This document shows, piece by piece, positions 4,274 to 34,205 of a DNA stretch of 34,205 nucleotides (within the stretch, counting starts at the first letter, position 1; every line of letters starts with the position of its first letter). The DNA comes from a virus. Its lineage: Duplodnaviria; Heunggongvirae; Uroviricota; Caudoviricetes. The notes beneath the pieces were generated by a model. That model had not been told where the DNA came from. It saw only the letters and a list, made by a program, of their open reading frames with translations, and did no database searches. Made by a program: the position numbers and the translations under genes. Location of the stretch: IMG/VR virus record IMGVR_UViG_2579778753_000004. One strand, written 5' to 3'.

Positions 4274-4327
4274 GGGGGCAGTATTGCCCCTGTGCGGGAA
4301 CGCCGATATTAAAGGCGTTTAAGAAGG

Positions 4328-4840
4328 TCAGTGGGAATGGTGATTAGAGTTCGGGCCGTCAGAGAGCATGCTGCCTGTCGAGTGGGCATTGCCGTTGATT
4401 TCAAGGTTGCCGTTCACCGTGGTGGTGTCAGCGGTCAAATCAATGGTTTTCCCCTTCAGGCTGATACCCACTGCAACCTCGATCACCACATGCTCGATAC
4501 CACCTTTGACTGTCAGCGTATGGGTCGCACGGTTATAGCTGAACTCTGCGCCATCCGCGTATTTCGTGCCCCGGACATGTTTGTCGCTGAACGGCGGTTT
4601 ATCGACTTCTGAGTACACCGCGCCCAGAATGACACCATCCTCGCCGTTGGCATCGAGCAGCACTTCAACCTGCTCCCCCACGTCAGGGAGCCAGTAATCC
4701 TTGTTATCCTGGGTATTGCGCTGCAGCACGTTAAGCCAGTTAGTGCGCAGGTTATCGCATTCCGGCAGACGAACGCGGGCCTGAACCTTGTCGGCATCGA
4801 CGGCGCTGACCGTACCGACCTGACGAGTGACGCCTGTCAT
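4328..4840 (-). CDS. Baseplate spike/assembly protein V-like
   Basis: 170 aa, gpV-like, followed by W and J homologues. Confidence 0.7.
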   Translation of the reverse strand: MTGVTRQVGTVSAVDADKVQARVRLPECDNLRTNWLNVLQRNTQDNKDYWLPDVGEQVEVLLDANGEDGVILGAVYSEVDKPPFSDKHVRGTKYADGAEFSYNRATHTLTVKGGIEHVVIEVAVGISLKGKTIDLTADTTTVNGNLEINGNAHSTGSMLSDGPNSNHHSH

Positions 4841-21333: not shown

Positions 21334-21658
21334 GGTGACCTCCTGTATGACGATACTGCTGTACCACTTCCAGTTTGTTGTAGAGTGCGTCCAGCTTGGC
21401 CTCGATGACCGTCTGCCCACGGATGTAATCCTCGCGGCGGACGTAGTTCAGCGGTAAATCCGCCTTAAACCGCATAAATTCTTTTTCCAGCTCGCCCCAG
21501 TTGGAAGCGGACTGTTGCAGCGACTGCTCAAGAGAGGCGAACCGCGCCGCCTGGCGCTCCTCCGCTTTACTGAACAGCCACTTGGCCATACCGCCGACAA
21601 AGCTCATGAAGGTGATGAGAAAGCCCACCACCGTCCAGAATTCAACCTGCAACGTCAT
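21326..21658 (-). CDS. Membrane-anchored coiled-coil protein
   Basis: Start at ATG 21658 (MTLQVEFWTVVGFLITFMSFVGG...), one transmembrane segment then coiled coil; ATGA overlap with the spanin stop. Confidence 0.5.
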   Translation of the reverse strand: MTLQVEFWTVVGFLITFMSFVGGMAKWLFSKAEERQAARFASLEQSLQQSASNWGELEKEFMRFKADLPLNYVRREDYIRGQTVIEAKLDALYNKLEVVQQYRHTGGHHG

Positions 21659-22308
21659 TTCTGTAATCCTTCCCGTTCGTCCAGCAGCCCGTTTATCTGG
21701 CTGCGCCAGATGCGGCACTGCTTCGCGTTGTCGATGATGTTGGCGAGGACATCACGCTGGGAGACGCCTGAGTTGCGTAGCCAGGCGTCAGCGGCTTCAG
21801 GTTGCCCGGACGCTGCGCCAGTGCCGGTGCCAGCGGCGGCAGTTGCGTCTGAATGACCGGTGTCGACGGATGCGTTGTCATATCCGAGCGCGGCGTTGTA
21901 CTGGCGCACGAAACCGCGAGTAAACACGCACTCAATGGGATGGCTCTTACCTTTTTCATCAATCCAGCGCTGTGTGACATCGTTAATTTGCCCCTGTAGT
22001 TGTTTGTTCTGGCTCTCCAGTTGAGCAATCTGCTCAAGGTAACTGGCTTCAGCCTGCTGCCCGGCGGCTACCTGTTCCTGATACCGTTTCGCCCAAGCCC
22101 GCAACGCAGCGTTCTCAAGCGTTGCCTGCTCCGTTTTGTACGTGTCGAATGCTGACTGCAACTCACTGACCGCCTTATCGCCGTCGCGCGTGGCGTTTTC
22201 ATGCCCGCTTTTGTAGCCCAGGTAATAAAGCCCAATCAGAAAAGCATTTATGACCACCGCCAGCAGCAGACTGCGCCACGGCAGATTTTTTAGCAGGTTA
22301 GTCCACAC
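21655..22308 (-). CDS. Rz-like inner-membrane spanin
   Basis: GTG start with GGAGG RBS overlapping the endolysin stop; N-terminal transmembrane segment WRSLLLAVVINAFLIGLYYLGY, then coiled coil. Confidence 0.6.
   Translation of the reverse strand: MWTNLLKNLPWRSLLLAVVINAFLIGLYYLGYKSGHENATRDGDKAVSELQSAFDTYKTEQATLENAALRAWAKRYQEQVAAGQQAEASYLEQIAQLESQNKQLQGQINDVTQRWIDEKGKSHPIECVFTRGFVRQYNAALGYDNASVDTGHSDATAAAGTGTGAASGQPEAADAWLRNSGVSQRDVLANIIDNAKQCRIWRSQINGLLDEREGLQK
21693..21959 (-). CDS. Rz1-like outer-membrane lipoprotein spanin, embedded in the +1 frame of Rz
   Basis: MKKVRAIPLSACLLAVSC... signal and lipobox-like Cys, then a Pro-rich mature region; wholly inside the Rz-like gene. Confidence 0.55.
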   Translation of the reverse strand: MKKVRAIPLSACLLAVSCASTTPRSDMTTHPSTPVIQTQLPPLAPALAQRPGNLKPLTPGYATQASPSVMSSPTSSTTRSSAASGAAR

Positions 22309-23035
22309 AGCTGCCGCCTCCCCAGGTGAGATAACGCGGGGCCAGTTCGTGCAGGATGCGCTGCGGATAATGACGGTTCTCCCGCCAGTTGGCAGTGCTG
22401 CGTCCGGCATTCACCGTGGCGACATGACCAAACCAGCGGGTGCTGTCCAGCCCCTGCTGCGAGGCCAGCCGTTTGTCCCGCTGTACCCAGCCCAGACCAC
22501 CGTTATAGCCTGACAGCGTCATGGCCATACGCTCGCAGTCATTGACGGCGCTGACGCGTTGCCACAGCCAGCGGTCATAGCTGACCAGCGCCCGGATGGC
22601 CCAAGACGGATTAAACGGTTCACGGCTGTTAAGCCCCGGCATCAGCTGACTTATCCAGTCAGCGGTGGTGGGCATAAACTGCGCCAGTCCCTGAGCGCCA
22701 ACCGGCGAGACCGCATCAGGTCGCCAGCCGCTTTCCTGATGCAGCTGCGCGGCGAAGTCGGCCACCGGCGCAGACATTCCCCATTCAAGCCGGGCATTAC
22801 GGATCACATCGTCGCGATACTGCAGCGCGGTCTGCGGTGGCTGGGCAGCGCGGGCCTGACTGAAGAAGCCGCCACACCAGAGCAGCCAGGCTACCGTTAC
22901 TGAACCAAAGAGCTGCCACCAGAAACTGTGCTTACCCGTTCGGGCCTGCCCGTGGCGGGCCAGTTCGATGCCCAGCCCCAGCAGTACCAGCACGGCCCAG
23001 ACAACCTGAGGCCAGTACATATAGAGGGTCATCAT
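22298..23035 (-). CDS. Lytic transglycosylase endolysin (SLT domain) with hydrophobic N-terminus (possible SAR-type)
   Basis: SLT catalytic motif ...QESGWRPDAVSPVGAQGLAQFMP...; about 60 N-terminal residues with two hydrophobic stretches. Confidence 0.8.
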   Translation of the reverse strand: MMTLYMYWPQVVWAVLVLLGLGIELARHGQARTGKHSFWWQLFGSVTVAWLLWCGGFFSQARAAQPPQTALQYRDDVIRNARLEWGMSAPVADFAAQLHQESGWRPDAVSPVGAQGLAQFMPTTADWISQLMPGLNSREPFNPSWAIRALVSYDRWLWQRVSAVNDCERMAMTLSGYNGGLGWVQRDKRLASQQGLDSTRWFGHVATVNAGRSTANWRENRHYPQRILHELAPRYLTWGGGSCVD

Positions 23036-23385
23036 TAAAGCCCCATCGCTACGGCCAGACAGACTGCAGCAACAATCAGCGCACGGCGGATTAGCGCAGC
23101 AGAAAAGACCAGGTGAAGGCCAGTCTGGACAGGGAAGCGACCATCAGCCATCAGCCTGTCATCATGCTTCAGGTACTGACCGGGACGGGCTTTGGGGAAA
23201 AGCGAACGGTCAAGCCAGTAGCCCAATACTGCCGCCAGCGTGATGAGTGATAGCTTGTAGACAACCACCGGCAGCTGCTGGGGCGATACCAGACCGATGG
23301 TGCCGAGCAGCAGCACAGCGGTCAGCAGCCAGCCGCTGAGACGTGGCTTTTTAACAGGGGGAATGAATTTTTTCAGGTTTTTCAT
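23035..23385 (-). CDS. Putative holin (three predicted transmembrane segments)
   Basis: Start at ATG 23385 (MKNLKKF...) with RBS AAGGAGA; first gene of the late operon, just upstream of the endolysin. Confidence 0.5.
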   Translation of the reverse strand: MKNLKKFIPPVKKPRLSGWLLTAVLLLGTIGLVSPQQLPVVVYKLSLITLAAVLGYWLDRSLFPKARPGQYLKHDDRLMADGRFPVQTGLHLVFSAALIRRALIVAAVCLAVAMGL

Positions 23386-23497
23386 GAGCGTCTCCTTGTG
23401 TAGTGGAGACAGCATCACAAATGGTCGGGGAAAGGGATTTTAAACAGCGTTAATAGTGAGGATGCAGACGTGAACCGCATGATGGCTTTGAAAGAAC

Positions 23498-23529: not shown

Positions 23530-23632
23530 ATCAACCCACAGGTATGCACTGTGAGCCGACCAGGGTTCAGTCAGTCTCGCGAGACCAGACTAGCCTGCCA
23601 TATTTTCATTGATTGCAAAAGGCTTACGGATA

Positions 23633-24403
23633 ATGAAAGAACAATCTTTACCCATCGTCCCATGGATTGGCGGTAAACGTCGTCTGGCGAAGCATATTTT
23701 ACCATTGTTTCCGGCCCATACCTGCTATGTGGAGCCGTTCTGCGGGGCAGCTGCGCTCTATTTCCTAAAGACTCCCAGCAAGACCGAAGTCATTAACGAT
23801 ATCAACGGGGAACTGGTGAACCTCTATCGGGTGGTCAAGCATCATCTGGAAGAATTTATTCGCCAGTTCAAATGGGCGCTGGTCAGCCGTCAGATTTACA
23901 AATGGTTGCAGGATACGCCGGAAGAAACGCTCACCGACATTCAGCGGGCGGCCCGGTTCTACTACCTGCAGAAACAGGCATTTGGCGGCAAGGTCGCCGA
24001 TCACACATTCGGTACCTCTACAACCAGTGCGCCGCGCTTCAATTTGCTGCGTATTGAGGAAGAACTGTCGATGGCACACCTGCGCCTGTCGAGAACGCTG
24101 ATAGAGCATCTGGACTGGCACCAGTGCATAGAGCGATATGATCGCCCGCATACGCTGTTCTACTGTGACCCACCGTACTGGGGAACGGAAGGCTATGGTG
24201 TGGAGTTCGGGCTGGAAAACTATGATCACATGGCAGATTTAGCGCGAAGGATCAAAGGGAAGATGATTATATCAGTGAACGATATCCCGGAAATGCGGCA
24301 GGTATTCAACGGTCTGAACATGCAGTCGGTTGATATCAGCTACAACCTTAAGGTAACAGGCAAACCCAGCCCGAAGAAAGAGCTGGTAATTTGTAATTTT
24401 TGA
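23633..24403 (+). CDS. DNA N6-adenine methyltransferase, Dam-like (orphan)
   Basis: N-terminal PWIGGKRRL and catalytic DPPY (YCDPPYWGTEGYG) motifs; start taken at ATG 23633 (the ORF track starts at a TTG at 23609). Confidence 0.8.
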   Translation: MKEQSLPIVPWIGGKRRLAKHILPLFPAHTCYVEPFCGAAALYFLKTPSKTEVINDINGELVNLYRVVKHHLEEFIRQFKWALVSRQIYKWLQDTPEETLTDIQRAARFYYLQKQAFGGKVADHTFGTSTTSAPRFNLLRIEEELSMAHLRLSRTLIEHLDWHQCIERYDRPHTLFYCDPPYWGTEGYGVEFGLENYDHMADLARRIKGKMIISVNDIPEMRQVFNGLNMQSVDISYNLKVTGKPSPKKELVICNF

Positions 24404-24450: not shown

Positions 24451-24984
24451 TTAATCCTGCCTTGGACAAGTCCAATAATCATTATCTGGCTCTGGTGAAT
24501 AAGCTTTCAAACAACCTGCTCGCGGGGTCTTACCATCATCTGTCATAGGAACTTTTTCCTTATCAAGTTTCACGGTCAGGTCTCCACCAGGAACATCCGT
24601 TTTATCGAAAAAAACAGCCTGACATGCTGATTTAGATATTTTCACTTCGTGGGCATTATTTGATATGAACAAATAACAATTATGACCAGAGGCTATGTAG
24701 TCACTTGGAATATTATTTTCGTCTTTAATATGAAACTGCACCGTTGTCACCGGGCGTTCGCTATCCTCGGATACTTCGACTTTTTCAAAACTGTCCGCGT
24801 ACTTATCCAGGCCGGGGAGTTGTTGGCGAATAAACGGTAATTCGCGATTTACAACCGGATTATCTGTTTCAACGCTAAAAACCGCGTGCTCCTTAGCTGT
24901 GGTGGACGTATCAGCAGGATCGGTATTATCTCCACACCCAGATAAAACAAATATCAACGGTAAAAATAATTTGCGCATAGTCAT
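24451..24984 (-). CDS. Secreted lipoprotein, low-GC accessory gene downstream of the repressor
   Basis: MTMRKLFLPLIFVLSGC lipobox LSGC; a hand count over 100 nt gave about 44% GC versus visibly GC-richer flanks; same strand as, and 36 bp downstream of, the repressor gene; RBS GAGGT. Confidence 0.7.
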   Translation of the reverse strand: MTMRKLFLPLIFVLSGCGDNTDPADTSTTAKEHAVFSVETDNPVVNRELPFIRQQLPGLDKYADSFEKVEVSEDSERPVTTVQFHIKDENNIPSDYIASGHNCYLFISNNAHEVKISKSACQAVFFDKTDVPGGDLTVKLDKEKVPMTDDGKTPRAGCLKAYSPEPDNDYWTCPRQD

Positions 24985-25019: not shown

Positions 25020-25430
25020 TTAACCCGTATTTTTTAATCTTTCGAACGCTGCGGACAGCTCCTTAAGCTGTTTTTCCATATCAATCATTCGCTGTTTTTC
25101 CTCAGCGCCTCGCAGCAACTCTTTTCGCACCTCTGGCTCCAGTTGGTTGAGCAGCTCCAATAACTTCAGATCAGACTGGTTGAAATGCTGCTCCTGATTA
25201 GCTGGCTGTGCTTTCTCTACCCCAACAGCTTCCCCTTTACCAGTAAGTAGCCAATCTATTGATATGTTCAAATGGGTGCTTAGCGCAACAAGAGCCTCTG
25301 CATTAGGTTCTCTCTCTCCACGCAGATAGTTTTGAAGTGAGCGATATGGAATTTTTGACAAGTCTGACAATGCCTTAATTGTCAGACCCTTAGCATCCAT
25401 CGCTTCGCGCAATCTCTCTTTTATACTCAT
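25020..25430 (-). CDS. Prophage repressor (XRE/Cro-CI type HTH, C-terminal coiled coil)
   Basis: Start at ATG 25430 (MSIKERLREAMDAKGLTIKALSDLSKIPYRSLQNYLRGE...); divergent from the early operon. Confidence 0.75.
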   Translation of the reverse strand: MSIKERLREAMDAKGLTIKALSDLSKIPYRSLQNYLRGEREPNAEALVALSTHLNISIDWLLTGKGEAVGVEKAQPANQEQHFNQSDLKLLELLNQLEPEVRKELLRGAEEKQRMIDMEKQLKELSAAFERLKNTG

Positions 25431-25446
25431 TTGAACATATCTCAAT

Positions 25447-25474
25447 TTGACATACCCGTTTGGGTGCGTACAAT
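25447..25474 (+). promoter_or_regulatory. Early promoter (Pe-like) with overlapping operator repeats
   Basis: -35 TTGACA (25447-25452), 16-bp spacer, -10 TACAAT (25469-25474); inverted TTGGGT/ACCCAA pair brackets the -10 and a further ACCCAA lies downstream. Confidence 0.6.
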
Positions 25475-25518
25475 AGACCCAATAGAGTACATCATAACCC
25501 AACAGGAACACGGTGCAT

Positions 25519-25743
25519 ATGAACAAACAACAAGTTCGGGCACGGCTGGTTGAAAGAGGCAGTAGCTTGCGCCAGTTCGCGCTTAACGCGGGCTATGAGC
25601 CACGAACAGTCACCCAGGCTGTCAGCCGCTGGGCAGGCAAAAGCGAACTTCCACGCGGTCGTTTGACTTATCGGATTTTGCGAGACCTTTCGGTCGCAAT
25701 AGGCAAAGAAGTTACCCCCGGCATCCTCAAGGAGGCGTCATGA
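25519..25743 (+). CDS. ner: Ner-like DNA-binding protein
   Basis: 75 aa ...LRQFALNAGYEPRTVTQAVSRWAG...; first gene of the early operon, RBS AGGAA. Confidence 0.7.
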   Translation: MNKQQVRARLVERGSSLRQFALNAGYEPRTVTQAVSRWAGKSELPRGRLTYRILRDLSVAIGKEVTPGILKEAS

Positions 25744-26966: not shown

Positions 26967-28736
26967 ATGAGTGCCGCCCTGACTGAACGACTGGTTTATG
27001 TTGCCCGCGCGGCACGTGACGCGGGGCATGGTAAGCGTGGTGCGATATATGATGCCGCCTGCGCCGAACTGGGCATTTCCCGCGCCACCCTGCTGCGCAA
27101 GCTGAAGGAGGTATCAGTGACTGACAAACGTAAAAAACGCGCCGATGCCGGGCGCAGTGCCCTGAGCCGCGACGAAGCCGCGCTGATATCTGCCACGCTG
27201 CGCGAGGCCACCCGTAAGAACGGTAAGCGCCTGTATTCCATCGCGGATGCGGTGGAGACCCTGCGGTCAAACGGCTTTATCACTGCTGGCAGAACGGACG
27301 AGGCCACAGGCGAGTTTTTCCCGCTGTCCGAGGACACCATCAGCCGCGCCCTGCGGAACTATGGTCTGCACCCGGAACAGCTTGACGCACCGGCCCCGTC
27401 GTCCGAGATGGCCAGCCTGCATCCCAATCACGTCTGGGAGATTGATGCCTCACTTTGTACGCTTTACTACCTGAGCAACGGCCATAAAGGGTTGCAGGTG
27501 ATGGACAGCTCGAAGTTCTACAAGAACAAGCCTGCCAACATCGCCCGCATCGCCAGTGACCGCGTGTGGAGTTACGAGATTACCGACCATACCAGCGGCT
27601 GGATTTACGTTGAGTACGTGATGGGTGCGGAATCTGGTGAGAACCTCTGTTCTGTGCTTATCAACGCCATGCAGGAGCGCGGCGGCGCGGACGTGCTGCA
27701 CGGCGTGCCGAAAATACTCTACCTTGATCCCGGTTCGGCGAACACCGCTGGCATGACGAAAAACATGTGCCGCTCGCTGGGCATCAATCTGATAGCGCAC
27801 AAGCCGCATAACGCCCGCGCCACCGGGCAGGTGGAAAAGGCCCGTGACATTATCGAACGTAAACTGGAGCCGGGTCTCAAATTCCAGCCGGTTCATAGCC
27901 TGGACGAACTGAACGCGCTGGCGGTGAAATGGCGCAGCCACTTTAACGCCACGGCGGTCCACAGCCGCCACGGTAAAACCCGCACGGATATCTGGCTGAA
28001 GATTACTGCTGACCAGCTGAAAAAAGCGCCATCCGTTGAGGTTTGCCGCGAACTGGCGGTGGCCGCACCGGAACTCCGTAAGGTCACACCAAAACTGCGC
28101 GTCTCGTTCCGGGGCAATGAGTTTGACGTTTCGACGGTACCGGGCGTACTGGTCGGCGAAAAACTGATGATTACCCGTAACCCGTGGCGCAGCGATGTGG
28201 CGCAGGTGGTGCTGACCGGTGAGGACGGTCACGAGACGTTCTTCCTGGTCGAGGAGGTCAGAAAGAACGAGTTCGGCTTTGCCGAAAGCGCGGCGGTATT
28301 TGGCGAAAACTACAAAGCCCTGCCGGAGACCCCGGCGCAGACGGCGGCAAAAGAAATCGAAGAGCTGGTTACGGGCACCGATAACGCCACCGATGCAGCT
28401 GCTGCACGCAAGGCGAAGGCGCTGCCGTTCGGCGGGCGACTTGACCCGTACAAACATATCGACGACACCACGCTTCCTGCCTATATGCCGAAGCGCGGTC
28501 AGGCTTCAGACGTGCGCGGGCCGCGTATTGAGCAGCGTCCGCTGACCCATGTGGAGGCGGCGAAAGCCCTGCGCGAGAAGTTTGGCGCTAACGGCCATAT
28601 CTGGACGCCGGAACATTACCGCCAGTTAACGGCGCAGTACCCGGATGGCGTACCTGAAGCCGCGCTGGATGAGGTGATGGTTACCCTGACCACTCCGGCC
28701 CGCAACAGCGTTATCAGCATCGTTAACGGTAACTGA
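26967..28736 (+). CDS. DDE transposase (MuA-like)
   Basis: 589 aa; candidate catalytic Asp at ...VWEIDASL... and ...LYLDPGSANT...; followed by the ATPase gene; RBS AGGAGG. Confidence 0.85.
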   Translation: MSAALTERLVYVARAARDAGHGKRGAIYDAACAELGISRATLLRKLKEVSVTDKRKKRADAGRSALSRDEAALISATLREATRKNGKRLYSIADAVETLRSNGFITAGRTDEATGEFFPLSEDTISRALRNYGLHPEQLDAPAPSSEMASLHPNHVWEIDASLCTLYYLSNGHKGLQVMDSSKFYKNKPANIARIASDRVWSYEITDHTSGWIYVEYVMGAESGENLCSVLINAMQERGGADVLHGVPKILYLDPGSANTAGMTKNMCRSLGINLIAHKPHNARATGQVEKARDIIERKLEPGLKFQPVHSLDELNALAVKWRSHFNATAVHSRHGKTRTDIWLKITADQLKKAPSVEVCRELAVAAPELRKVTPKLRVSFRGNEFDVSTVPGVLVGEKLMITRNPWRSDVAQVVLTGEDGHETFFLVEEVRKNEFGFAESAAVFGENYKALPETPAQTAAKEIEELVTGTDNATDAAAARKAKALPFGGRLDPYKHIDDTTLPAYMPKRGQASDVRGPRIEQRPLTHVEAAKALREKFGANGHIWTPEHYRQLTAQYPDGVPEAALDEVMVTLTTPARNSVISIVNGN

Positions 28737-28746
28737 GGAGGAAGGC

Positions 28747-29913
28747 ATGCTGGTACTGAAGCAACAACTGAAAGAGGCCCGCATCCCGCAGGCGGTGGTG
28801 GCAAGAGCCGTCGCCGTTTCCGAGGCCACGCTGGCCCAGATTGTGAACCATAACGAGTGGCCACGCACCAGCCCCGAAGAGGTACGCCAGCGTCTGGCGT
28901 TGTATCTGGAAAGTAAGGGGATTGATACAGCGAAAAGTTTTGATGCTGCACAGGGCGCTGTCACGCCCCGTACAGCGGGTACTACCGATAAAACCAACCT
29001 CAGTGAGGAAGAGAACATGTTACTCAAAAAGCAGGTGTTATTTCCAGCAACCAAAAAAGCGTTTGGCCTTTTCCGTGATCCGTTCGCCGATGAAGCCATG
29101 CAGGGCGCGGACGATGTGTTCACCACGCCGGATATCCGCTACGTGCGTGAGGCGCTGTTCCAGACCGCCCGCCATGGTGGCTTTCTGGCGGTTATCGGCG
29201 AGTCCGGTGCGGGTAAATCCACGCTGCGCCGCGACCTGATTGAACGCGTCAACCGCGAGAACGCGCCGGTGATTGTAATTGAGCCATACATCATCGCCAT
29301 GGAAGACAACGACGTGAAGGGCAAAACCCTGAAGGCGGCAGCTATCGCCGAGGCCATCATCAGCACCATCGCGCCGCTGGAGAGTATCAAACGCAGCCAG
29401 GACGCCCGCTTCCGCCAGTTGCACCGCGTCCTGAAGGACAGCAGTCAGGCGGGTTTCAGCCACGTTCTGGTGATTGAGGAGGCCCACAGCCTTCCCATTC
29501 CGACGCTGAAGCACCTTAAACGCTTCTTCGAACTGGAGTCCGGCTTCAAAAAACTGCTGTCCATCGTGCTGATTGGCCAGCCTGAACTGGCGGACAAACT
29601 GTCCGAACGCAACATGGAAGTCCGTGAGGTCGTCCAGCGCTGCGAGGTGGTTGAATTGCTGCCGCTGGACAACAGCCTCGAAGAGTTTCTGACGTTCAAA
29701 CTGCAACGTGCCGGTAAGCAGCTGGCCGACATCATGGACGCCAGCGCAGTGGAAGCCATCCGCGCCCGTCTGAGCAATCTGGGTGGTAGCCGTAAAAGCA
29801 TGGTCAGCCTGCTGTATCCGCTGGCCGTCAGTAACCTGGTGATAGCCGCCATGAATCTGGCTGCTGAAATCGGGGTTCCGCAGGTCAACGCCGACGTCGT
29901 CAAAGGAGTTTAA
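28747..29913 (+). CDS. Transposition helper AAA+ ATPase (MuB-like)
   Basis: 388 aa, Walker A GESGAGKST, Walker B-like HVLVIEEAH; immediately downstream of the transposase. Confidence 0.8.
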   Translation: MLVLKQQLKEARIPQAVVARAVAVSEATLAQIVNHNEWPRTSPEEVRQRLALYLESKGIDTAKSFDAAQGAVTPRTAGTTDKTNLSEEENMLLKKQVLFPATKKAFGLFRDPFADEAMQGADDVFTTPDIRYVREALFQTARHGGFLAVIGESGAGKSTLRRDLIERVNRENAPVIVIEPYIIAMEDNDVKGKTLKAAAIAEAIISTIAPLESIKRSQDARFRQLHRVLKDSSQAGFSHVLVIEEAHSLPIPTLKHLKRFFELESGFKKLLSIVLIGQPELADKLSERNMEVREVVQRCEVVELLPLDNSLEEFLTFKLQRAGKQLADIMDASAVEAIRARLSNLGGSRKSMVSLLYPLAVSNLVIAAMNLAAEIGVPQVNADVVKGV

Positions 29914-30202: not shown

Positions 30203-30814
30203 ATGAGCGAAGTAAATAAAGAAAACTACATGAAAGACCGCAAGGGGCGTCTGGTGCCGGTTGACCAGGTGTCTGACTATGACCTTGCGATGGACTCTTT
30301 CGTTAAAGAACAGGTTGTCGCCGCGAAGGTTAAACGCGATGAACTCAGTGACTTCAAGCGTCGTGCCTTTGACGAGTGCTATGCCTGGCTTGACCTTGTG
30401 GCCGAGAAGTACGGCAGAACGCGTGGCGGTGCCAAAGGCAACGTGACCTTCAGCAGCTTCGACGGTGCTCAGCAGATCACCATCCGCGTGCAGGAAACCC
30501 TGACCTTCGGGCCAGAGCTGCAGATTGCCAAAGACCTGATAGACGAGTGCGTCACCGAGTGGTCGGAAGGCGCGAACGCCAACCTGCGGGCCATCATCAG
30601 CGATGCTTTTCAGGTGGACAAAGAGGGCCAGCTTAATACCGGACGTATTCTTTCCCTGCGCCGCGTCAAGATTCAGGACGAGCGCTGGAACCGGGCAATG
30701 GAGGCCATATCGGAATCACTGCAGGTGGCAATGTCCAAAACCTATATTAATTTCCGGGAGAAAGATAAACACGGGAAGCTAATTAATATTCCGTTAGATA
30801 TCGCTGCCATTTAA
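30203..30814 (+). CDS. Conserved Mu-like early protein (DUF3164-like, from memory)
   Basis: 203 aa, RBS AGGTGA. Confidence 0.5.
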   Translation: MSEVNKENYMKDRKGRLVPVDQVSDYDLAMDSFVKEQVVAAKVKRDELSDFKRRAFDECYAWLDLVAEKYGRTRGGAKGNVTFSSFDGAQQITIRVQETLTFGPELQIAKDLIDECVTEWSEGANANLRAIISDAFQVDKEGQLNTGRILSLRRVKIQDERWNRAMEAISESLQVAMSKTYINFREKDKHGKLINIPLDIAAI

Positions 30815-31364: not shown

Positions 31365-31661
31365 ATGAAAGGCATGAAATTATATAACCGTTCGACGATC
31401 TACAATCTGGCCCTCAAAACCTTCGGCCCAGAAGCTCAGGCTCTGAAGCTGATGGAAGAAGCTGCCGAACTGGCCGCTGCTGCTGCCCGCAACATGAACG
31501 GACTGGGCAATGAAGTTGATCTGGCAGGCGAACTGGCTGACGTTGAAATCATGATTGAACAGTTCCGCCTAAACGGGATGGGCCTGATGATTGATTTTCA
31601 TAAGCAGAAAAAGCTGGAACGCCTTGCCGAACGCCTGGGGGTGACTTATGCCGCAGAATAA
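31365..31661 (+). CDS. MazG-like nucleotide pyrophosphohydrolase-type small protein (tentative)
   Basis: 98 aa; acidic helix motifs LMEEAAELAAAAA and LAGELADVEIMIEQ; RBS GGGGAAG. Confidence 0.45.
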   Translation: MKGMKLYNRSTIYNLALKTFGPEAQALKLMEEAAELAAAAARNMNGLGNEVDLAGELADVEIMIEQFRLNGMGLMIDFHKQKKLERLAERLGVTYAAE

Positions 31662-32337
31662 TGAAAAGCTGCTGGAGAAGTTAAAAAAGCTACTTGCGCT
31701 GGCTAAATCCGATAACCCCCATGAAGCGGCACTGGCACTGCAACGCGCCCAGAAACTGATGCAGGCCTATAACATCACCCAGGCTGACCTCGCACTCAGT
31801 GATATTGATGAAAGCGTCAGTAACTACTGGGCTGCAGGTAGCGTTAATCCGCCGCGTTATATGCTGGGTCTGCTGGATATTATCCAGGTGGCATTTGGCG
31901 TTAAGTCTATTATTCACTCCGGCTTTAAACCCGGCGTTGGCTTTTACGGTAATAAAGACCGGGTTGAACTGGCCTCATATACATGGGAGGTACTGGCCAG
32001 ACAGTTAATCATGGCCCGTAAAAACTATATTCGACAGCAGAATAAAAGAATCAAAAACACGACCAAGACCAGCCGTGGTGACAAATTTGCCGAAGGGTGG
32101 GTTCTGGCCGTGCGTAGCGAGGTTCATTTATTTGCTATGTCCCGCGAAGAACGGGAGCTGGCAAACCTCTGGCTTGAACAAAAATACCCTGATTCAGGAA
32201 CAACCTCTGGCCGCAAAGCCGGTAAATCCCGTGACGCGGACATGTCCCGCCACATCGGTTACAGAGAGGGAGAAAACGTCCGTCTACATCAGCCTGTCAG
32301 CGGGCAGGAACAGCGGAAGCTGGGGAGTGGCTTATGA
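31648..32337 (+). CDS. DUF2786-like protein
   Basis: 229 aa; N-terminal KLLALAKSDNPHEAALALQRAQKLM as I recall for DUF2786; RBS GGGGGTGA. Confidence 0.5.
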   Translation: MPQNNEKLLEKLKKLLALAKSDNPHEAALALQRAQKLMQAYNITQADLALSDIDESVSNYWAAGSVNPPRYMLGLLDIIQVAFGVKSIIHSGFKPGVGFYGNKDRVELASYTWEVLARQLIMARKNYIRQQNKRIKNTTKTSRGDKFAEGWVLAVRSEVHLFAMSREERELANLWLEQKYPDSGTTSGRKAGKSRDADMSRHIGYREGENVRLHQPVSGQEQRKLGSGL

Positions 32338-32549
32338 TGGCTGAATCAATTGTATGTGCCTTGTTCTGGTATGGTCTCGTGGGGTGGTGTACTGCTGAAC
32401 TGCACCGCCGTTCAGGGTTTTACTCACGTTACAGCGGTACCGGACACTGGATCAGTTGGGCCGTTATGTTCCTGTGCTGGCCTGTCGCGCTTCCTTTATA
32501 TGTCGACTATATCGGTGGCGCAGGTAAAAGGAGTGGCAATGATGACTAA
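32334..32549 (+). CDS. Small membrane protein (two predicted transmembrane helices)
   Basis: 71 aa; ATGA overlap with the upstream gene; RBS GGGGAG. Confidence 0.5.
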   Translation: MMAESIVCALFWYGLVGWCTAELHRRSGFYSRYSGTGHWISWAVMFLCWPVALPLYVDYIGGAGKRSGNDD

Positions 32550-32967
32550 GCAGCGTCTTATTCAACTCATTCATATTGCCCGCAGCGACCTCCAGATGGA
32601 TGAGGACACCTACCGCCAGATGCTACAGGGGCTGACCGGCAAAGCCTCAACCAAAGGGATGGATACCCCACAACTAAACCGCGTGCTGGAATCAATGAAA
32701 AAGAAAGGCTTTCGCATTAAGCCTGCCGGGAAAGCCAAGTCCGGCTTACCGCTCGACAGCCATCCGCAGTCAAAGAAAATCCGTGCGCTATGGCTTGAAA
32801 TGGCTGCCGCAGGCATCGTCCGTGACAGTTCAGAGCAGGCGCTGGCGCTGTGGGTTAAACGGGAAACCGGCATCAGCGCGTTACGCTGGCTCAGCAATGA
32901 GCAGGCAAGTAGCGTGATTGAGAAACTGAAGAAGTGGCAGCGCAGAGCTGCGGGAGTGAAGCAATGA
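32539..32967 (+). CDS. gemA: GemA-like protein (Mu gp16 family)
   Basis: Start at ATGATG 32539 with RBS AAAGGAG; ...LIQLIHIARSDLQMDEDTYRQML... aligns with Mu GemA as I recall it. Confidence 0.65.
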   Translation: MMTKQRLIQLIHIARSDLQMDEDTYRQMLQGLTGKASTKGMDTPQLNRVLESMKKKGFRIKPAGKAKSGLPLDSHPQSKKIRALWLEMAAAGIVRDSSEQALALWVKRETGISALRWLSNEQASSVIEKLKKWQRRAAGVKQ

Positions 32968-33353
32968 GCGACCTGAATCAGTTTCGTAGTAAAGGGCCGG
33001 AACTGTTGGTGGAACTGGCACAGCATACCTCTGAGACTGTCCGCGAGATTATTGATATCGAACCCGCAGTTGCCGACCAGATTGGTCAGGCCGTCGCGAA
33101 CCGCATGATGCAGGTCTGGGGTGGGCAAAACGTCTATTTTCCGATGGGCATGGTCTGGAAGGTCAGCCAGCGCGACCGGGAAATTTTCCTGGAGTTTGAC
33201 GGGCGCAACCATCACGAACTGGCCCGCAAATTTGGTGTTTCACTACAGTGGGTTTACAGCGTGGTGAAGCGGGTCAGAAAAGAAGAACTGGATCGGATGC
33301 AGGGCAAACTGTTTGATGGCGAACCTGATGCCGATACAGGGAAAAAGGAGTAA
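32964..33353 (+). CDS. mor: Mor/C-family transcriptional activator
   Basis: ...VWGGQNVYFPMG...FDGRNHHELARKFGVSLQWVYSVVKR... aligns with Mu Mor (GGQ.VYIP ... FNGRN..EL...YGV....VY) from memory; ATGA overlap with gemA. Confidence 0.75.
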   Translation: MSDLNQFRSKGPELLVELAQHTSETVREIIDIEPAVADQIGQAVANRMMQVWGGQNVYFPMGMVWKVSQRDREIFLEFDGRNHHELARKFGVSLQWVYSVVKRVRKEELDRMQGKLFDGEPDADTGKKE

Positions 33354-33382
33354 TATCTGCAATCAGGCTGGTGCGAGTTCTG

Positions 33383-33434
<52 letters not shown>

Positions 33435-33443
33435 ATCCAGTCT

Positions 33444-33514
33444 CTTCCCATGTTGACCCAGTACTTCCCATAATTATCTCACTTATCCCCTGTCATTTAT
33501 CTCAAGTCTAATCA
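33444..33514. repeat. Prophage right terminus with subterminal direct repeats (putative transposase-binding sites)
   Basis: CTTCCCAT at 33444 and 33464 (20-bp period); TTATCTC at 33475 and 33498 (23-bp period); element ends ...AATCA at 33514. Confidence 0.55.
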
Positions 33515-34205
33515 GCTCACGGCCCTGATAGATAACGCCTTTTGAATCGCAAACCACGATGTTATGTTTTTGCAGACCCAGCGCTACCAGCAGGTTCATA
33601 CAGGCGATTGCTGCGGCACCCGCGCCGGAAACCACCATCCGCACGTCGGAGATGTTTTTCTCCACCACGCGCAAGCCGTTGAGGATGGCGGCAGTGCTGA
33701 TGATTGCCGTGCCGTGCTGATCGTCGTGGAATACCGGAATATTCATCCGCTCGCGCAGTTTCTGTTCAATATAGAAACATTCTGGCGCTTTAATGTCTTC
33801 GAGGTTGATTCCGCCGAAGGTCGGTTCGAGCGCAGCGACAACTTCAATAAATTTGTCCGGGTCGAGTTCATCAACTTCAATGTCAAATACATCAATCCCG
33901 GCGAATTTCTTAAACAGAACGCCCTTGCCTTCCATCACCGGTTTGCCAGCCAGCGCGCCAATGTTGCCTAACCCCAGCACCGCCGTACCGTTAGAGATCA
34001 CCGCCACCAGGTTACCGCGCGCGGTATATTTGTAGGCTTTTAACGGGTCTTTTTCGATTTCAAGACAAGGTGCGGCAACGCCTGGTGAGTAGGCCAGCGC
34101 CAGATCGCGCTGCGTTGCCAGAGGCTTGGTTGGAGAAACCTGGATTTTCCCTGGAACTGGAAATTCATGGAAATCAAGTGCACTTTGTTTTAACTGGTCA
34201 TCCAT
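33483..34205 (-). pseudogene. maeB: maeB 5' fragment (NADP-dependent malic enzyme) interrupted by the prophage
   Basis: The translation matches the N-terminal ~229 residues of E. coli MaeB as I recall them ([53 protein letters not shown]...GVIYQGRE), then diverges into [10 protein letters not shown]-stop read from phage DNA. Host-derived DNA is 33515-34205. Confidence 0.8.

Follow-up and report, generated by a model that had tools for sequence, protein, structure and literature searches.

What does a transposable phage do with a very small hydrophobic protein that it encodes immediately before its gemA and mor genes, and is the short open reading frame (ORF) concerned a gene at all? The question is raised by positions 32334-32549 (plus strand, stop codon included) of a stretch of 34,205 nucleotides (nt) of caudoviricete DNA (IMG/VR record IMGVR_UViG_2579778753_000004), which is referred to below, at its full length, as the window, and which contains the greater part of a BcepMu-type, Mu-like transposable prophage (its relative PhiKM is classed in Bcepmuvirus). 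The ORF begins with ATG and specifies a product of 71 amino acids (aa), MMAESIVCALFWYGLVGWCTAELHRRSGFYSRYSGTGHWISWAVMFLCWPVALPLYVDYIGGAGKRSGNDD. A first-pass annotation, made from the letters alone, had described this product as a protein with two hydrophobic helices, translationally coupled within the early operon just upstream of gemA and mor, and had guessed at a host-killing or division-inhibiting role. The description is borne out, both for the 71-aa protein with its two helices (by the ORF, its hydropathy and the helices modelled by AlphaFold2, insertion into the membrane being a prediction) and for the position, which is confirmed by Pfam matches of the two downstream genes (E 4e-41 and 1e-42). 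The guess at host killing gains no support from comparative data as far as the phage copy is concerned. That this is a real early-operon gene for a membrane hairpin can be said with high confidence; what the hairpin does can be proposed more tentatively.

Evidence for a genuine gene

The ORF is protein-coding and is under purifying selection. Against 15 of 16 homologous loci the ratio of nonsynonymous to synonymous substitution rates (dN/dS) is 0.04-0.18, the sixteenth locus, that of PhiKM, being saturated at synonymous sites; the median over 100 locus pairs is 0.12, and the values for GemA in the same genomes are 0.04-0.17. Third codon positions are the most variable ones in the gene, and the ORF is intact across Enterobacterales at 66-99% identity. 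It is this conservation, rather than the length of the ORF, that marks a real gene, because an ORF of such size alone is within what chance provides. The coding sequence at 32334..32549 is thus documented by the ORF list, by its match to the PHROG 6436 family (phrog_6436), by its homologues and by dN/dS.

Two other readings of the locus were rejected. Faster or positive selection on the small gene, which an identity below that of its neighbours might suggest, does not hold, since its dN/dS equals that of GemA and, wherever it looks more diverged, its synonymous divergence is higher too. A start of gemA far upstream, within a 205-aa ORF in the gemA frame (32350-32967, plus strand, TTG start) that spans nearly the whole small gene, was dismissed because 13 of the 18 loci compared have stops in this frame at a distance of 3-17 codons ahead of the gemA ATG. 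Apart from the window, only its four closest relatives keep the 205-aa frame open, and both the Pfam and the Mu GemA alignments begin from the short gemA start. Gene callers could mis-extend gemA into this frame.

Position and start signals in the early operon

In the rightward early operon, whose order is Ner-like, transposase, MuB-like, DUF3164, MazG-like, DUF2786, small gene, gemA, mor, only two cistrons follow the small gene. Its first codon overlaps the stop of the cistron before it, and gemA has its ribosome-binding site and start inside it. More specifically, the ATG of the small gene (32334) overlaps the stop TGA (32335-32337) of the upstream cistron as ATGA. This cistron (31648..32337, plus strand) encodes a DUF2786/DUF7168 protein of 229 aa (Pfam E 2e-13 and 1.5e-24; phrog_421), and the Shine-Dalgarno-like sequence GGGGAG of the small gene (32322..32327, plus strand) lies inside its end, 6 nt before the ATG. 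At the other end, the gemA Shine-Dalgarno sequence AAGGAG (32528-32533) and the gemA ATG (32539) fall inside the C-terminal codons of the small gene, with an overlap of 11 nt. The gemA gene (32539..32967, plus strand; 142 aa; PF06252, E 3.7e-41) is called a gp16 family protein by PGAP from the same start, and its stop TGA forms another ATGA overlap with the ATG (32964) of mor, the last gene of the early operon (32964..33353, plus strand; 129 aa from this ATG; PF08765, E 1.3e-42), whose start is also that of PGAP in an identical locus. The MazG-like gene (31365-31661) and the DUF2786 gene (31648-32337) overlap too.

No promoter-like site was found on the plus strand between 31300 and 32750, and no terminator-like site between these cistrons. 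An internal promoter akin to the Mu semi-early promoter before gemA was considered and rejected, as none was found in that interval. The overlaps, together with the lack of promoter-like or terminator-like sites between the cistrons, make translational coupling within the early operon a sound reading, as the first-pass annotation had it.

A predicted two-helix inner-membrane hairpin

The product is very probably a two-helix hairpin of the inner membrane, as judged from its residues and their conservation. Hydrophobic helix 1 (codons 5-21, 32346..32396, plus strand; SIVCALFWYGLVGWCTA), with an invariant G17 and a near-invariant W12, is followed by a basic and aromatic conserved loop, predicted to be cytoplasmic on the grounds of charge bias and conservation (codons 22-38, 32397..32447, plus strand; ELHRRSGFYSRYSGTGH), and by hydrophobic helix 2 (codons 39-57, 32448..32504, plus strand; WISWAVMFLCWPVALPLYV), with an invariant W49-P50 and a near-invariant P54. 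The mean Kyte-Doolittle hydropathy is 1.56 over residues 5-21 and 1.65-1.67 over residues 39-55/57, against -1.39 for the polar loop (22-38), and AlphaFold2, run twice on alignments of 26 and 36 sequences, placed helices at 2-27/34-65 and at 2-26/36-66. When the same residues were shuffled 20000 times, two such separate hydrophobic windows arose only 24 times, so that the segregation is not a by-product of composition. Among the six-frame ORFs of 60-100 aa in the window, 2 of 49 show the hydrophobic pair, the second being an out-of-frame ORF inside the DUF2786 gene. Databases label the small protein 'Membrane protein', 'Prophage membrane protein' or 'hypothetical protein'.

The residues that are invariant or nearly so over 36-41 family members are G17, H24, G28, W42, W49-P50 and P54, and the loop (E/Q-L-H-R-x-x-G-F/Y-x-S-R-Y-x-G, with ELHRRxGFYSRYxG as a shorter consensus) is the most conserved polar stretch. 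Over 41 members the loop has on average 3.0 Lys+Arg vs 0.85 Asp+Glu, the four-residue N-terminus nearly always contains an acidic residue and the C-terminal tail is acidic on average; in 40 of the 41 members the net charge of the loop exceeds that of both termini combined. The positive-inside rule is the established basis for reading topology from charge, and by this rule the charge excess of the loop predicts that the loop is cytoplasmic and that both ends are periplasmic. A topology prediction had been proposed as a check in the first-pass annotation, and this N-out/C-out hairpin is its outcome.

The variable C-terminal tail (codons 58-71, 32505..32546, plus strand), as seen from sequence and alignment, doubles as the gemA Shine-Dalgarno sequence and ATG. 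Its residues GKRSGNDD are encoded by the gemA start signals, and, together with the arrangement of the gemA start, tails range from acidic (...NDD) to basic (...KKRR, in PhiKM). The tail is probably not a functional part, its composition being partly set by the signals for gemA translation.

Family, distribution and allele exchange

The only profile match of the small protein is PHROG 6436 (E 8.3e-15; residues 1-60 align with positions 1-60 of the 68 in the profile). No family was matched in Pfam, NCBIfam, PADLOC or a PDB sequence profile, and thus none for Kil, Hok/type I toxins, holins or division inhibitors in these collections or in PHROGs (cut-offs were E<=0.1 for Pfam and PHROGs and E<=1 for NCBIfam, PADLOC and Rfam). 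Four members of the family were compared with the PADLOC defence profiles and gave no match at E<=1, and Rfam gave no match at E<=1 on either strand of 31500-33600. A fold search of the two-helix models was empty against PDB and returned only matches with E>1, that is, noise, against BFVD; such blanks are expected of a 71-aa hairpin modelled at a mean predicted local distance difference test (pLDDT) score of 65-69.

A large protein database holds 30 clusters of homologues at E<=1e-3, all from Enterobacterales, 66-99% identical and nearly all of 71 aa. The exact protein is found on at least 1000 contigs of E. coli, Salmonella, Citrobacter and Klebsiella, and of 5426 complete E. coli genomes, 208 (~4%) have the DNA. 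Three phages carry a member of PHROG 6436 of the same length directly before gemA, namely Escherichia phage Phi06_2974 B (100% identical), Klebsiella phage KP12 clone 2 (97%) and Escherichia phage PhiKM (43%); in none of them does the gene differ in kind from that of the window, and the records say 'hypothetical protein'. The record of KP12 clone KP12_2 (L003, OM835952.1, 35 kb) is filed under Vequintavirinae, yet it is a BcepMu-type transposable phage whose early region is ~96% identical to the window over the parts in common; either the taxonomy line is apparently wrong or the clone is a co-purified prophage.

The small gene adjoins gemA wherever a phage or prophage locus was examined: it either overlaps gemA by 4-11 nt or stops 1 nt short of it. 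The loci comprise those of KP12 and PhiKM, of three E. coli genomes and of 14 genomes from other genera, together with three metagenome or genome loci. Similarity to the window begins exactly at 32334 in the commonest E. coli allele class (~83-87% identical DNA), and since homology begins at this base the small gene travels as a module with gemA and mor. Upstream, the context varies between DUF2786 directly and an extra soluble ORF of 76 aa in between, and the G-rich purine tract before the ATG (of GGGGAG/GGGAGG type) is kept in both contexts. The identity of the small protein can be far below that of its neighbours: in PhiKM it is 43%, vs 87% for GemA and 95% for another neighbour, and in locus L015 it is 76%, vs 95% for GemA. 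As synonymous divergence is also higher, the lower identity points to allele replacement and not to relaxed or positive selection.

The 76-aa ORF between DUF2786 and the small gene, which the window does not have, is found in many related prophages (L006:3281-3511, L003:3781-4011, L002:3781-4011); in the KP12 record it is given as the equivalent of 'STY1594' of S. Typhi CT18, and in E. coli CE10 (L005:2132-3511) an IS3 element is inserted there and truncates it. The small gene itself is frameshifted or truncated in Erwinia tracheiphila and Apirhabdus apintestini (L017:4001-4199, L018:4001-4215), where gemA is broken too. Disrupted copies are confined to these two, and look like decaying prophages in host-restricted bacteria.

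Homologues in chromosomal operons

A profile built from prophage members only also matches two non-phage proteins, P0034 (E 4e-14) and P0050 (E 3e-5). The latter forms one small subfamily with P0069 (Kluyvera ascorbata) and P0072 (Pseudocitrobacter corydidari), and alignment of this subfamily with the phage family by hhalign gave a probability of 96.9% (E 1.4e-10). Like the phage protein, all four chromosomal proteins (60-71 aa) are predicted hairpins with an ELHRRxG(F/Y) loop and an FWP motif in helix 2. They are 25-37% identical to it overall, and even at this distance the loop motif is retained; they are encoded outside prophages, with no gemA nearby.

In all six loci fetched for the P0050 subfamily (L025, L026, L027, L032, L033 and L034), the small gene is the last of its operon (e.g. 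L033:3501-3683) and starts 18 nt after a TonB paralogue of 244-253 aa, which itself follows a TonB-dependent receptor of the haem/haemoglobin type. A Fur-box-like site (GATAATAGATCTCATTATC, 14-15 of 19 matches) precedes the receptor. The dN/dS of the TonB-linked subfamily, ~0.35, is looser than that of the phage gene. The other homologue, P0034 (67 aa; L028:4001-4204 and L029:498-701; genome GCA_016756775.1), lies outside any prophage between an alginate lyase gene and an oligoalginate-lyase-like gene, beside a KdgM porin and an SSF transporter. A plasmid search with a chromosomal homologue found nothing, and when the TonB-linked subfamily served as the seed of a database search, nothing beyond its own three clusters came back. 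As a clue, the chromosomal context points to envelope uptake or energy-transduction machinery, and an intrinsically lethal fold is unlikely because homologues are kept as the last cistron of nutrient-uptake operons under purifying selection.

Proposed explanation

The small gene is real and belongs to the accessory early genes of the BcepMu-type transposable prophages of enterobacteria. Its product would sit in the inner membrane as a hairpin of two helices (at about residues 5-21 and 39-57), with the loop cytoplasmic and the short ends periplasmic, and it would be made only after induction or infection, in a fixed proportion with GemA and Mor; this lytic-only timing is suggested by the lack of a promoter-like site of its own and by the repressor gene at the head of the operon. 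The hairpin may dock, via its two helices and loop, onto a host inner-membrane complex, and this docking would alter an envelope function during lytic growth, with no pore formation or general membrane damage. Specific rather than generic action is favoured because the most conserved polar element is the loop motif, which is kept in distant homologues. As a whole, this statement of a specific small-protein modulator is put forward tentatively, at somewhat below an even chance. A narrower version names the target: the phage protein could be a captured member of a family that natively partners a dedicated TonB paralogue in a Fur-regulated receptor operon, and it could dock on TonB-ExbB-ExbD (or TolQR), thus switching off TonB-dependent uptake in lytic growth. 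So specific a version is speculative and decidedly improbable; if it were true, the protein would be a new kind of phage inner-membrane inhibitor, which excludes TonB-dependent phages and colicins or reshapes the energetics of the envelope.

Several points weigh against the modulator proposal. The mean pLDDT of the two AlphaFold2 runs was 65.5 and 69.1, that is, of moderate confidence. The hydrophobicity of the helices is marginal for insertion, with Kyte-Doolittle means of ~1.6 and a simple sum on the Hessa scale of +1.4 to +3.4 kcal/mol, so membrane insertion is a prediction only; the hydrophobic segments are rich in Trp, Gly and Cys. The topology call leans partly on the charge of the C-terminal tail, and this charge is imposed by the gemA start signals that overlap the tail codons. 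As to the target, the chromosomal subfamily gives only weak guidance, being tiny (three 90% clusters from Kluyvera, Pseudocitrobacter and relatives, plus one alginate-operon cluster), and a literature search returned no paper on the family, on its accessions or on a small protein beside a TonB paralogue.

Alternative explanations

The guess at a host-killing or division-inhibiting protein rested on the view that small membrane proteins at this position in phages are often killers, and this generalisation fails in the phages compared. In Mu, gemA is preceded by Mu_54 (55 aa, no clear hydrophobic pair, Kyte-Doolittle <= 1.16) and by the semi-early promoter, in BcepMu by the SSB-like gp03, and in Pseudomonas phage Bise, a Vibrio phage and a Pasteurella phage by soluble or larger proteins; a small membrane protein before gemA was found in none of these five. 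A killer of this kind would depolarise the inner membrane through its hairpin or block a component of the divisome, and a small hydrophobic protein of the early operon, in an accessory region like the 'semi-essential early' one, would be in keeping with this; Mu-type phages carry a Kil function in the same operon (according to the Mu annotation), and some phage division inhibitors are small membrane proteins, e.g. SPO1 gp56. However, there is no similarity to Kil, Hok/type I toxin, holin or known division-inhibitor families, the Mu kil gene (4315-4539) lies right after B, at the other end of the region, and has no transmembrane annotation, and the conserved polar loop suggests a specific contact over generic membrane damage. 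The persistence of homologues at the end of chromosomal uptake operons under purifying selection also speaks against a killer; host killing is unlikely. Slightly less probable still is superinfection exclusion or immunity during the lytic cycle, in the manner of T4 Imm, whereby the protein would block DNA entry or the uptake of rival phages or colicins, with TonB/ExbBD as a possible target. This would suit early expression and a membrane location (both of them deductions), the cellular homologues beside a TonB paralogue and the existence of several divergent alleles; synonymous divergence in some prophages lies far above that of the flanking gemA and mor and suggests allele swapping, which is common for exclusion genes. 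Yet neither Imm nor any other known exclusion family was matched (E<=0.1 in Pfam and PHROGs, E<=1 in NCBIfam), PADLOC gave no match, lysogens would go unprotected by an early operon that is repressed in them, dN/dS bears no sign of diversifying selection, and the link to TonB comes from one narrow chromosomal lineage.

Three further alternatives look to other partners or processes. The protein might act together with GemA (or with the DUF2786 protein) as its partner or tether in the membrane, for example localising GemA at the membrane, as the constant adjacency to gemA in all prophage loci, across alleles 35-99% identical, and the module boundary exactly at the start of the small gene would lead one to expect. 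But GemA homologues in Mu, BcepMu and phages of Pseudomonas, Vibrio and Pasteurella have no such neighbour, the alleles do not co-vary with GemA (as the identities in PhiKM and L015 given above illustrate), and there is no GemA near the chromosomal homologues, which makes a tether improbable. A part in lysis timing, as a class II holin, a pinholin or an antiholin-like protein, is brought to mind by the 71 aa, the two weakly hydrophobic helices rich in Gly, Ala and Cys and the charged C-terminus; the gene lies in the early operon, however, and not in the lysis cassette, the phage has its own Holin_2-3 holin, SLT endolysin and spanin, no holin model was matched in Pfam or PHROGs, and a dual-start motif is missing, the second residue varying among M, T, I, V and A. 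A lysis component is accordingly very improbable. The idea that there is no functional product, the ORF being a mere translated leader that delivers ribosomes to gemA, could appeal to the tight overlaps on both sides and to the C-terminal tail, whose composition is set by gemA signals. It is contradicted by a dN/dS of ~0.12 over the first 60 codons, which lie outside the gemA overlap, and by the invariant residues, the conserved motif and the homologues outside phages that have no gemA; among the explanations considered here it has the least chance, and is close to refuted.

The surrounding prophage

The phage encodes its late functions, including lysis, on the minus strand, and the small gene is ~9 kb from the lysis cassette (21655-23418). 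This cassette comprises an Rz-like spanin (21655-22410), an SLT endolysin (22298-23035, domain match) and a Holin_2-3 holin (23035-23418; PF13272, E 1.5e-41), all on the minus strand. The endolysin has two N-terminal hydrophobic stretches that match a separate family, phrog_5479 (residues 6-59), and it may be membrane-tethered or of the signal-anchor-release type.

Two moron-like genes sit between the lysis cassette and the repressor gene. One (23609-24403, plus strand) encodes a protein of 264 aa with a DPPY motif (YCDPPYWGTEGY), which is typical of N6-adenine DNA methyltransferases, the resemblance being a reading of the motif only; the other (24451-24984, minus strand) encodes a protein of 177 aa with a lipobox-like N-terminus (LSGC), which matched only phrog_10002 and no Pfam family.

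A CI-type repressor gene (25020-25526, minus strand) is followed by the Ner-like gene (from 25513, plus strand) that heads the rightward early operon. Downstream of it in this operon, all on the plus strand, are the transposase (26967-28736), a MuB/ExeA-like ATPase (28747-29913), the DUF3164 gene (30203-30814) and the MazG-like gene (31365-31661), after which come the DUF2786 gene and the genes discussed above.

The right end of the prophage is at ~33512/33513, inside maeB, whose frame (...GVIYQGRE) resumes at 33514; the truncated maeB ORF (33483-34205, minus strand) reads through into phage DNA for 10 codons. In E. coli Ecol_542 an identical early region occupies another chromosomal site, where it has disrupted an aldolase gene, as is expected of a transposing phage.

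What the gene may be worth

The gene is common (~4% of complete E. coli genomes, as noted), and is otherwise an ordinary conserved hypothetical phage gene, with one modest lead in the chromosomal homologues beside a TonB paralogue. Were it a modulator of a host inner-membrane complex, it would be one of the few small phage proteins whose membrane targets are defined, and it might open a way to study the uncharacterised small gene found after a TonB paralogue in some Enterobacterales. The main value of the analysis is more sober: the small gene is real and the overlapping 205-aa ORF is not, the product is not the holin of the phage, and a label of 'host-killer' would be unsupported.

Comparison with known systems

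Mu Kil and Mu_54, like the small gene, are encoded by accessory genes in the early operon of a transposable phage. Mu Kil is encoded at a distance from gemA, and whereas the records of Mu gp19 and gp20 have a transmembrane annotation, that of Kil has none; no Kil family of Mu or lambda was matched, and the small gene is not placed after B. Mu_54 has no similarity to the small protein, and the Mu semi-early promoter before gemA is without a counterpart here. As regards type I toxin-antitoxin systems (Hok, Ldr, TisB), there was no match in Rfam or to a toxin family, and the small protein has two predicted helices, not one.

Class II holins and the pinholin S21-68 are proteins of ~70 aa with two modestly hydrophobic transmembrane helices and a charged C-terminus, and in size and predicted helix number (two helices, ~65-95 aa) the small protein would fall among class II holins. 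T4 Imm, likewise a small and early protein, has a hydrophobic region in the inner membrane that resembles a hairpin. T4 is lytic, and no coupled regulator genes accompany Imm; Imm is a plausible functional analogue of the small protein, with no detectable similarity in sequence or profile. AcrZ, MgtS, KdpF and the like are very small hydrophobic proteins, often encoded at the end of transport operons, which bind larger membrane complexes. They have one helix each, as against the two of the small protein, and are unrelated to it in sequence, but in genomic context the chromosomal homologues of the small protein resemble them.

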